Assembly (NCBI GenBank): GCA_965235115.1
Contig: OZ249436.1
Span: 310,001 to 374,000 of the forward strand
Reading direction: 5' to 3'
Length of the DNA stretch: 64,000 bases
Source of the DNA: Laetmonice hystrix
Taxonomy: Eukaryota
In this document: positions 9,761-12,700 of the stretch, in pieces
Layout of the letters: each line of letters opens with the position of its first letter
Numbering within the stretch: the first letter of the stretch is position 1
The notes under the pieces: generated by a model
Databases searched by the model: none
The model's input: only the letters and a program-made list of their open reading frames with translations
What the model was told of the DNA's origin: nothing
Position numbers and translations under genes: made by a program

Positions 9761-12700
9761 GTAAGCAAACCTCAACCCTTTCTGTTGATCTTCCGCACTT
9801 TCATCTTTCTTTTGTCTCCTGCTACCTTCCATCTTCAAAGTCTTGCAACCCTCGGGGCTGTAGATACGCGTAATGAAAACTTTGGGTGATTTTTTTTCTG
9901 ATTCAAATAAAGCATTGTTCAGAATTATAAGGGGATGGTATGGTTTTCTTAATGTCGTCTCGATGTCTTCATGATGGATGTATAATTATGAAAACTTAGA
10001 AACTAAAGATATCTTGCTATGGATAAGAACAAAATCTAGTTAGTGAAGGTATTGAAATAGAACATGTGGATGGCCCGTTTGAAGTGGTCTCTATGGGAAC
10101 AAAAGCGCCGTTGGGTTTGCTAGACTGTCTGTGCCTGGATTGTGCCCCCGCCCCGACCCTTGCCAGGTTTTCATCGACCTGGTTTGCCACCAGGGGGCAG
10201 TAGTATCAACATGATCCCAGAAACCTGTGTTTGCTTAACGATTCGGTGCTGTAACCGTGTGATTTAGTTTGCAATGTTTGCTCTGAAATTCTTATTTGGG
10301 TTAAGTTGGTTGCATGGGCAAAGAAATTGGCATTGGACTCCTATGTGCTGTTTCATGGCCAATTCAATCAATTCTGTAGGTCTATATTTTTCCAAAAGAA
10401 AAATTAATTAAGCTGGAAAGTAAAATCCATTTTGAACATTTTAGTTAAATACTTAAAAGCTGACTACATTATTTGCAGTTTTAGGATTGTAAATTGCAGG
10501 ATTAATGTGTTTGATTTACAAGGTGTGCTGTCAGTGAGAGTGTTTAATGTGTTTTATTTACTAGGTGTGCTGTCAGTGACAGTGTTTAATGTGTTTGATT
10601 TACAAGGTGTGCGGTCAGTGAGAGTGTTTAATGTGTTTGATTTACAAGGTGTGCTGTCAGTGAGAGTGTTTAATACTTTAATGTGTTTGATTTACAAGGT
10701 GTGCGGTCAGTGAGAGTGTTTAATGTGTTTGATTTACAAGGTGTGCGGTCAGTGAGAGTGTTTAATGTGTTTGATTTTCAAGGTGTGTGGTCAGTGAGAG
10801 TGTTTAATGTGTTTGATTTACAAGGTGTGCGGTCAGTGAGAGTGTTTAATGTGTTTGATTTACAAGGTGTGCTGTCAGTGAGACTGTTTAATACTTTAAG
10901 GTGTTTGATTTACAAGGTGTGCTGTCAGTGAGAGTGTTTAATGTGTTTGATTTACAAGGTGTGCTGTCAGTGACAGTGTTTAATGTGTTTGATTTACAAG
11001 GTGTGCTGTCAGTGAGAGTGTTTAATACTTTAATGTGTTTGATTTACAAGGTGTGCTGTCAGTGAGAGTGTTTAATGTGTTTGATTTACAAGATGTGCGG
11101 TCAGTGACAGTGTTTAATGTGTTTGATTTACAAGGTGTGCGGTCAGTGACAGTGTTTAATGTGCTTGATTTACAAGGTGTGCGGTCAGTGACAGTGTTTA
11201 ATGTGTTTGATTTACAAGGTGTGCGGTCAGTGAGAGTGTTTAATGTGTTTGATTTACAAGGTGTGCGGCCAGTGAGAGTGTTTAATGTGTTTGATTTACA
11301 AGGTGTGCGGTCAGTGAGAGTGTTTAATGTGTTTGATTTACAAGGTGTGCGGTCAGTGAGAGTGTTTAATGTATTTGATTTACAAGGTGTGCGGTCAGTG
11401 ACAGTGTTTAATGTATTTGATTTACAAGGTGTGCGGTCAGTGACAGTGTTTAATGTGTTTGATTTACAAGGTGTGCGGCCAGTGAGAGTGTTTAATGTGT
11501 TTGATTTACAAGGTGTGCTGTCAGTGAGAGTGTTTAATGTGTTTGATTTACAAGGTGTGTGGTCAGTGACAGTGTTTAATGTGTTTGATTTACAAGGTGT
11601 GCTGTCAGTGAGAGTGTTTAATGTATTTGATTTACAAGGTGTGCGGTCAGTGACAGTGTTTAATGTGTTTGATTTACAAGGTGTGCGGTCAGTGACAGTG
11701 TTTAATGTAAAAGGTGGCTGTGGGCAGATAATGGTGGAGGCGGGGATTAATGATCTATTTAACACCAGGGGGCACTCGCTATTGTTGTAAAGTCGGATAC
11801 CCGCCGACTGGGATGTGAAGGGTTATCTCATTTACTATCAGTAATTACCCTGAGGTTATCTAGAGTTACAATGTCTAGCCGTCGTGATTACACACATTAT
11901 TTTAAATGTCCATTGTTAGGTGAAGTGAGGAAATGAAAGTTTTAGGAAGCTATTATTCACAGCGAAGGATCAGATTATAATCGAATGAAGAAAACATTAG
12001 TTGTGTTTAGTTCAACTCAGTTTTACTGGTCCTGCTTCTAACAATAAAACCTGCACATTTCATACACAAGGACTTCCAAAAGGAATAGGAAGAGTTCCTC
12101 TAACTCATTACATGCTCCTTTTGGAAAGACCAAATTCGTACAGTCGTACAGTGATATCACGGAACTGTTATGTTCTCTTACCAGAGTTCCCTACTTGGCT
12201 CTGGCTAAAACATTTGAGGCAATCGAGGCAGTGTCTGCACGGTAAGTGACATTCCTTTCTTTGTTGGGTTAAATGAATTATTATAAGTTTTTATTCCTAT
12301 TGAACCTATTTTTATATATTAATAACCAAGATTTTTTGGTTTTTTGTTTTTATGTTTTTTGGTTCTTTTAAAATCCAGGTTAAAGATGATCGAGATCCTG
12401 AGTAACTTCCTGCGTTCCGTGATGGTGCTGACACCTGGTGACTTACTCAAGTGTATGTACCTGTGTCTGAACAAGATCTCGCCAGACTACGAGGGTTTGG
12501 AACTGGGAATCGGCGAGAGTTTGTTAATGAAAGCCATCGCTCAGGCTACAGGTACGTTTATAGGTGGGAGAGTTTGTTAATAAAACTCATCACTCAGGCT
12601 ACAGGTACGTTTATAGGTGGGAGAGTTTGTTAATGAAAGCCATCGCTCAGGCTACAGGTACGGTTATAGGTGGGAGAGTTTGTTAATAAAACTCATCACT

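Follow-up and report, generated by a model that had tools for sequence, protein, structure and literature searches.

A derived hairpin variant in a minisatellite spanning a LIG1 exon end of Laetmonice hystrix, weighed against repeat turnover and template switching

The DNA ligase 1 gene (LIG1) of Laetmonice hystrix carries, across the end of one coding exon, a 53-bp minisatellite in which most copies bear a short derived hairpin. This hairpin variant exemplifies, on a small scale, a kind of repeat turnover that is already known, and a general drift to palindromy is not supported in the window, that is, in the whole 64-kb stretch of DNA that was analysed (Table 1). We lean towards reading the array as an ordinary "mirage" minisatellite that grew from an 8-bp direct repeat and in which a founder variant was spread by homogenisation.

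Table 1. Positions of the features discussed, counted from the first letter of the window.
Feature	Position	Strand	Basis
LIG1 coding exon, followed by a GT donor	12379..12551	+	tblastn with mollusc LIG1; transcript-like contig
53-bp minisatellite, 22.2 copies	12515..13687	+	TRF, unit list
Left seed GAGAGTTT, 8-bp direct repeat; also contains the left arm of the hairpin	12515..12522	+	
Genic unit, ancestral state; changing sites 12529 (G), 12533 (G), 12534 (C)	12515..12567	+	orthologues, spliced copy
First derived copy with the 6-bp hairpin GAGTTT-7nt-AAACTC (16 such copies)	12570..12588	+	
Two neighbouring odd units, AAAACGC and AAAACCC	12939..13043	+	
Right seed GAGAGTTT, an incomplete terminal unit consisting of the seed alone	13680..13687	+	
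104-bp array in an intron of the CBX-like gene, candidate additional to the two of the original prediction	38123..39177	+	
61-bp (plus 46-bp) array with TCTGACC-CTTA-GGTCAGA in its units; genic copy GGTCACA	56430..57333		
Ankyrin-repeat ORF, 437 aa from stop to stop	57285..58598	-	

LIG1 was located on the plus strand, at about 9.6 to 30.8 kb, by tblastn with mollusc LIG1, and its best matches, at 79% identity, come from spiders, an annelid and molluscs. The array unit joins 37 nt of exon end to the donor and 16 nt of intron, and the pattern is matched 22 times at 53-bp spacing, compared to 0.11 matches expected by chance. As in mirages, the first unit spans an exon-intron boundary, with the exon end at 12551, and the splice signal is duplicated along with the unit, CAG/GTACG being kept in all 22 full units. 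The 8-bp direct repeat at both ends and the incomplete last unit are features of direct-repeat-seeded minisatellites. At unit positions 14, 18 and 19 (0-based), the exon type G/G/C is found in 4 of the 22 units, namely the first copy and three intronic units, whereas 16 units carry A/C/T and one unit each A/C/G and A/C/C. As four genic-type units persist, the three changes are younger than the birth of the array. The A/C/C copy is consistent with stepwise change, and this second odd unit may be either an intermediate of such steps or a revertant. In two DNA runs, many short contigs stack up on the 53-bp unit, and no unit-level alleles or second haplotype of the array were found in the DNA-run contigs, which represent one sample of one study. 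Letters that differ in DNA-run contigs at 11794, 12167 and 12331 are consistent with a second allele.

The polarity of the LIG1 changes, from exon to repeat, had been predicted and is borne out by orthologues and a spliced transcript contig, which make the exon form ancestral. The exon form encodes M-K-A, a motif that was located in 114 of 120 homologues, with Ala in 108/114 and Met in 75/114. A transcript-like contig of 2943 nt shows 0 differences from the LIG1 exon and continues into the next exon, hence, together with the orthologues, AAACTC is the derived form, and the exon end in actual use is the first copy. Normal splicing, as known for mirages, is indicated by this one transcript-like contig using the first copy, contigs being prone to drop rare isoforms. 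Metagenome loci yielded no near relative giving polarity at the intron level, and the four loci examined confirm the protein motif only.

The array would have arisen as follows. GAGAGTTT stands in the exon and would have been present once more 53 bp downstream in the intron, and slippage or unequal exchange between these seeds, both of which are still visible, could have produced the tandem duplication. The first copy stayed the functional exon end under protein constraint and outside homogenisation, as orthologues and the transcript contig show. One early intronic copy may then have gained the three changes (G>A, G>C and C>T), perhaps one after another, and the founder variant spread to 16/22 units, probably through homogenisation in the course of array turnover. 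Two of the changes would have happened to finish a 6-bp stem on a pre-existing quasi-palindrome that already paired at four of six positions.

The original prediction described three clustered changes that make a GAGTTT/AAACTC stem and took the clustered perfection of quasi-palindromes as the signature of template switching. The stem is indeed present in 16/22 copies, but only two of the three changes pair: the GC>CT doublet restores pairing at both bases, inside a GA/TC anchor and around a 7-nt loop, whereas G>A sits in the loop, facing a G. The derived unit folds into the 6-bp stem at -3.4 kcal/mol on 31 nt, a value equalled by 9-16 of 200 shuffles, and the exon copy folds at -1.1 kcal/mol using another stem. 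Among the possible adjacent doublets in the genic unit, 16/477 (3.4%) place both bases in a perfect stem of at least 6 bp. Of 1431 triples spaced as in the real case, 5.8% have an inverted tract of at least 6 nt that accounts for two of the changes, and 19% match the energy drop on folding. All three changes can be covered once two overlapping inverted templates in the unit are allowed, as is also true of 30/1431 triples (2.1%). The regularity of such an array is far beyond chance, whereas hairpin gain alone is a 2-6% event per cluster, and with 29 multi-change clusters in the window, one or two hairpin hits of the LIG1 size are therefore expected.

A local quasi-palindrome template switch in one unit after the birth of the array, followed by spread of the repaired unit, is the main alternative and a possible, if tentative, one: starting from a prior near 5-10% and given the nulls, it is put at roughly one in three for LIG1. 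The nascent 3' AAA would fold on TTT and copy GAG, so that GC becomes CT, while G>A would be a separate change or would stem from another short inverted template of the unit (TTTAT); the same process would account for the hairpins of the ankyrin and CBX-intron arrays. The adjacent doublet that restores pairing at both bases speaks for a switch, as do the secure polarity at LIG1, the only one of the three arrays where the imperfect form is shown to be ancestral, and the two further hairpin-perfecting clusters in the window. The process is documented, with events in VNTRs already described in the available part of one study (bioRxiv 2021.11.26.470150). That source calls an event where the copied tract has at least 8 nt and contains all four bases, and a likelihood threshold with the same four-base filter is given in the part of PMC7954356 that was available. 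At LIG1, two of three changes are explained by a nearby reverse-complement template, in line with the rule of at least two, but the tract is 6 nt long and AAACTC, lacking G, uses three bases only, hence it fails the published filter; the tracts of the ankyrin and CBX-intron arrays have all four bases and are 7 nt long. Moreover, the primer would consist of three A-T pairs, and the A/C/C copy is present in the array. Edge or genic clusters reach stems of at least 5 bp in 5/13 cases against 1.85 expected (p=0.025) in what is a hand-picked subset, and this excess falls to 3/11 against 1.5 expected (p=0.18) without the arrays cited in the original prediction; clusters in their minority state, mostly the younger ones, create such a stem in 0/29 cases (p=0.02). 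What had been called a signature is weak at LIG1, where the short tract is matched in 3-6% of random clusters and lies below published thresholds.

The clusters of the CBX-intron and ankyrin arrays are better local candidates than LIG1, and the CBX-intron array is the best template-switch candidate in the window. The CBX-like gene lies at about 38-49 kb. In 7/9 units of its intronic array, a perfect 7-bp GAGCTCA/TGAGCTC stem is formed, while the two right-edge units show three substitutions and one indel in one arm and a paired G-C/A-T change in the other, with folding energies of -12.2 kcal/mol for the stem units versus -8.0 kcal/mol for the right-edge units. An inverted copy of 7 nt accounts in full for the cluster of three substitutions and the indel (null 1.7% of 1260). 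A minus-strand exon inside this array was considered and rejected: the array sits in a plus-strand intron and is therefore without coding polarity.

In the ankyrin array, the original prediction held that copies complete a palindrome relative to the genic copy. This applies to 9/11 motif matches, which read GGTCAGAG, but it takes a single change, the far-edge copy already has the G, and the direction of change is set for LIG1 only. The remaining 2/11 matches, namely the genic copy at 57277 and one inside the array at 56727, have GGTCACAG and differ by that one substitution, which exchanges Val and Leu at the third codon before the stop, in the C-terminal tail; the final codons and the stop of the ORF fall in the terminal repeat copy. 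The outer AC doublet of the unit, versus genic GT, also adds pairing. Between the far flank and the unit there are four differences in about 14 nt, the unit version completing the TCTGACC arm, and decay of the edge copy would look the same. The arrays at 48927-49603 and 56430-57333 begin at or just past the stop codons of the convergent CBX-like and ankyrin genes.

By TRF, 30 tandem arrays occupy 44% of the 64-kb window. All array tests are confined to this one window and to fewer than 30 arrays, and their power is low. The nested or complex arrays at 8813, 32554, 54806 and 55796 were excluded from every test, as was the array of 13-bp units at 14351; the array at 15484 is absent from the edge-gain, cluster and terminal-unit comparisons, and the edge-gain energy test was run without two arrays having units above 110 nt. 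Lenient edge extension overran the flank in several arrays, including the left edge of LIG1, and full terminal units were used instead. Perfect-stem counts take in pairing between adjacent units via short internal palindromes, a property that the nulls share.

The gain of stem pairing across arrays, which had been proposed as the test of the prediction, was followed in 26-27 arrays and gave no clear excess, with several results leaning weakly in its favour. The majority unit was more stable than the terminal unit in 19/36 comparisons, less stable in 14 and no different in 3 (p=0.24 by sign test, p=0.07 by Wilcoxon test), and more stable in 17 versus less stable in 14 of 33 without the cited arrays (p=0.36). 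The effect per change was -0.14 kcal/mol, versus -0.11 kcal/mol for 141 internal variant units (p=0.49); these stem largely from decay of the majority form. Internal minor alleles lay in stems of at least 6 bp in 10/129 cases, with 8.6 expected, and 35 edges showed no gain under a decay null (p=0.59). When edges were taken as ancestral, gains exceeded a random-mutation null (Stouffer p=0.0003 for 35 edges, 0.002 without the cited arrays), a comparison that is biased to significance when both lineages diverge and in which some alignments overran into the flank. Outside the cited arrays, edge-carried variants were found in stems of at least 6 bp in 14/89 cases versus 8.8 expected (p=0.03), from five arrays only. 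These positive hints are weak, and they are leads rather than findings, as dozens of tests, overlapping one another, were run on a small number of arrays.

It is quite unlikely that the variants arose at random and that folding units were preferentially copied or kept during array turnover, and the form in which folding units are selected for weakening decoy splice signals is less likely again. The LIG1 hairpin leaves the donor site uncovered. A further conceivable effect of the changes is that the decoy copies lose a purine-rich splicing enhancer. Hairpins are thought to help slippage at human MSY1, according to the available part of PMC2599865, and the stem-bearing state of clusters is always the majority (8 versus 0). 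The majority state falls in stems of at least 5 bp in 8/29 clusters, where 3.6 would be expected if the new bases were random (p=0.02), but random placement on the consensus already gives 7.45. Internal variants shared by at least two units do less damage to stems than expected (mean -0.15 versus -0.56, n=47, p=0.085). Compared with shuffles, the units of 27 arrays have only a slight folding advantage (mean z -0.48, p=0.02), yet they are no more folded than 120 unique controls (mean z -0.24, p=0.18).

The strongest form of the prediction, that fold-back synthesis takes part in forming the arrays and leaves inverted copies at duplication junctions, drew on two hand-picked cases and is very improbable: a stretch of 7 nt in the 12-nt junction segment of the ankyrin array repeats neighbouring sequence in inverted form (p=0.05), and an inverted copy of 7 nt is also present at the CBX-intron junction (p=0.18), but inverted copies are not enriched in the 10 junction-only segments (p=0.27; 4/22 arrays dropped, phase not found), eight further arrays, LIG1 included, end in direct overlaps of 0-14 bp with no junction segment, the LIG1 seed is a direct repeat whose array preceded the changes, and the window as a whole shows no excess.

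Several other arrays of the window deserve mention in their own right. Apart from LIG1, a Pfam scan of 148/275 candidate ORFs found no other conserved exon within any array. The array at 10502-11708 has a 42-bp unit with a perfect CTGTCA-G-TGACAG palindrome only where two independently segregating variants meet, one being present in the first unit and the other in the last. Units with perfect stems of 6-9 bp also occur at 45029-47011, where the stem begins exactly at the left array edge, 51511-52398, 24441-25812 and 20013-20587, with no overall enrichment versus controls. The otherwise unrelated arrays at 565-1465 and 26779-30310 have the 10-mer GTTTATTGAC(C) in common in their unit consensuses. 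The arrays at 59578-59734 and 60339-61207 share the same 42-bp unit with about 600 bp between them and are perhaps a single array split by an insertion; since several frames of their unit are open, long but spurious ORFs result. The units of the nested 20/34-bp array at 54806-55760 resemble minus-strand donors (AAG/GTAAGG) and have a pyrimidine tract and an AG 15 nt upstream of the donor, which from its letters alone could be a micro-exon mirage. A reverse-transcriptase fragment (Pfam RVT_1, E 4.7e-26) at 34446-35468 on the minus strand is probably derived from a retrotransposon.

As it stands, the preferred reading of LIG1 as a homogenised mirage adds little new, as mirages, direct-repeat seeding and quasi-palindrome repair have all been described previously. 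Many satellite monomers are palindromic. A coding-exon anchor shows the ancestral unit, hence a whole-genome test could settle whether repeat units gain self-complementarity over time, and such a test bears on palindromic satellite monomers. A search of the literature by title and start of abstract found no paper making this exon-anchored test of self-complementarity, which is not proof of absence. It appears improbable that turnover in a genome so rich in minisatellites, by exposing single strands that repeatedly fold and copy themselves or by favouring folding units, imposes a directional drift of units to palindromy; if it did, exon-anchored mirages, their ancestral unit being fixed by protein, would amount to thousands of polarised natural experiments, and there would be a route from ordinary genic DNA to palindromic satellite monomers.

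Among known systems, the amphioxus mirage minisatellites of Adh3 and the globins BflGb6 and BflGb9, as presented in the available part of PMC3087553, resemble the LIG1 array in a unit laid over an exon-intron boundary, in spare splice signals, in the persistence of normal splicing and in boundary copies that escape homogenisation. The LIG1 array differs in its invertebrate host and in the derived hairpin of its unit, palindromes, hairpins and secondary structure having 0 mentions in that paper. In the model of minisatellite birth from direct repeats (Haber and Louis, 1998; Taylor and Breden, 2000, as summarised in the accessible text of PMC3389668), a flanking repeat of 5-10 bp and an incomplete terminal unit are shared with LIG1, in contrast to the left seed, which at LIG1 is coding sequence and one arm of the hairpin as well. 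Short-range template-switch mutations, in which a multi-base cluster turns one arm into a precise reverse complement of another close by, are described in the consulted portions of three papers (bioRxiv 2021.11.26.470150; PMC7954356; PMC8604942). In human, 4,425 of 91,300 clusters have a template-switch solution (bioRxiv 2021.11.26.470150, in part), and in yeast 8/42 (19%) of the cases with 7-bp arms beat simulation (PMC8604942, in part). The tracts of this window, at 6-7 nt, stay under the thresholds of these sources, and at LIG1 one change lies outside the main template and a partly changed copy is also present. The nearest precedent for a hairpin minisatellite is human MSY1, in which the whole 25-bp unit forms the hairpin, whereas that of LIG1 is a weak, derived 19-nt part of a 53-bp unit; for MSY1, mismatch repair of cruciforms was judged unlikely by its authors, as far as the available text of their paper goes (PMC2599865).
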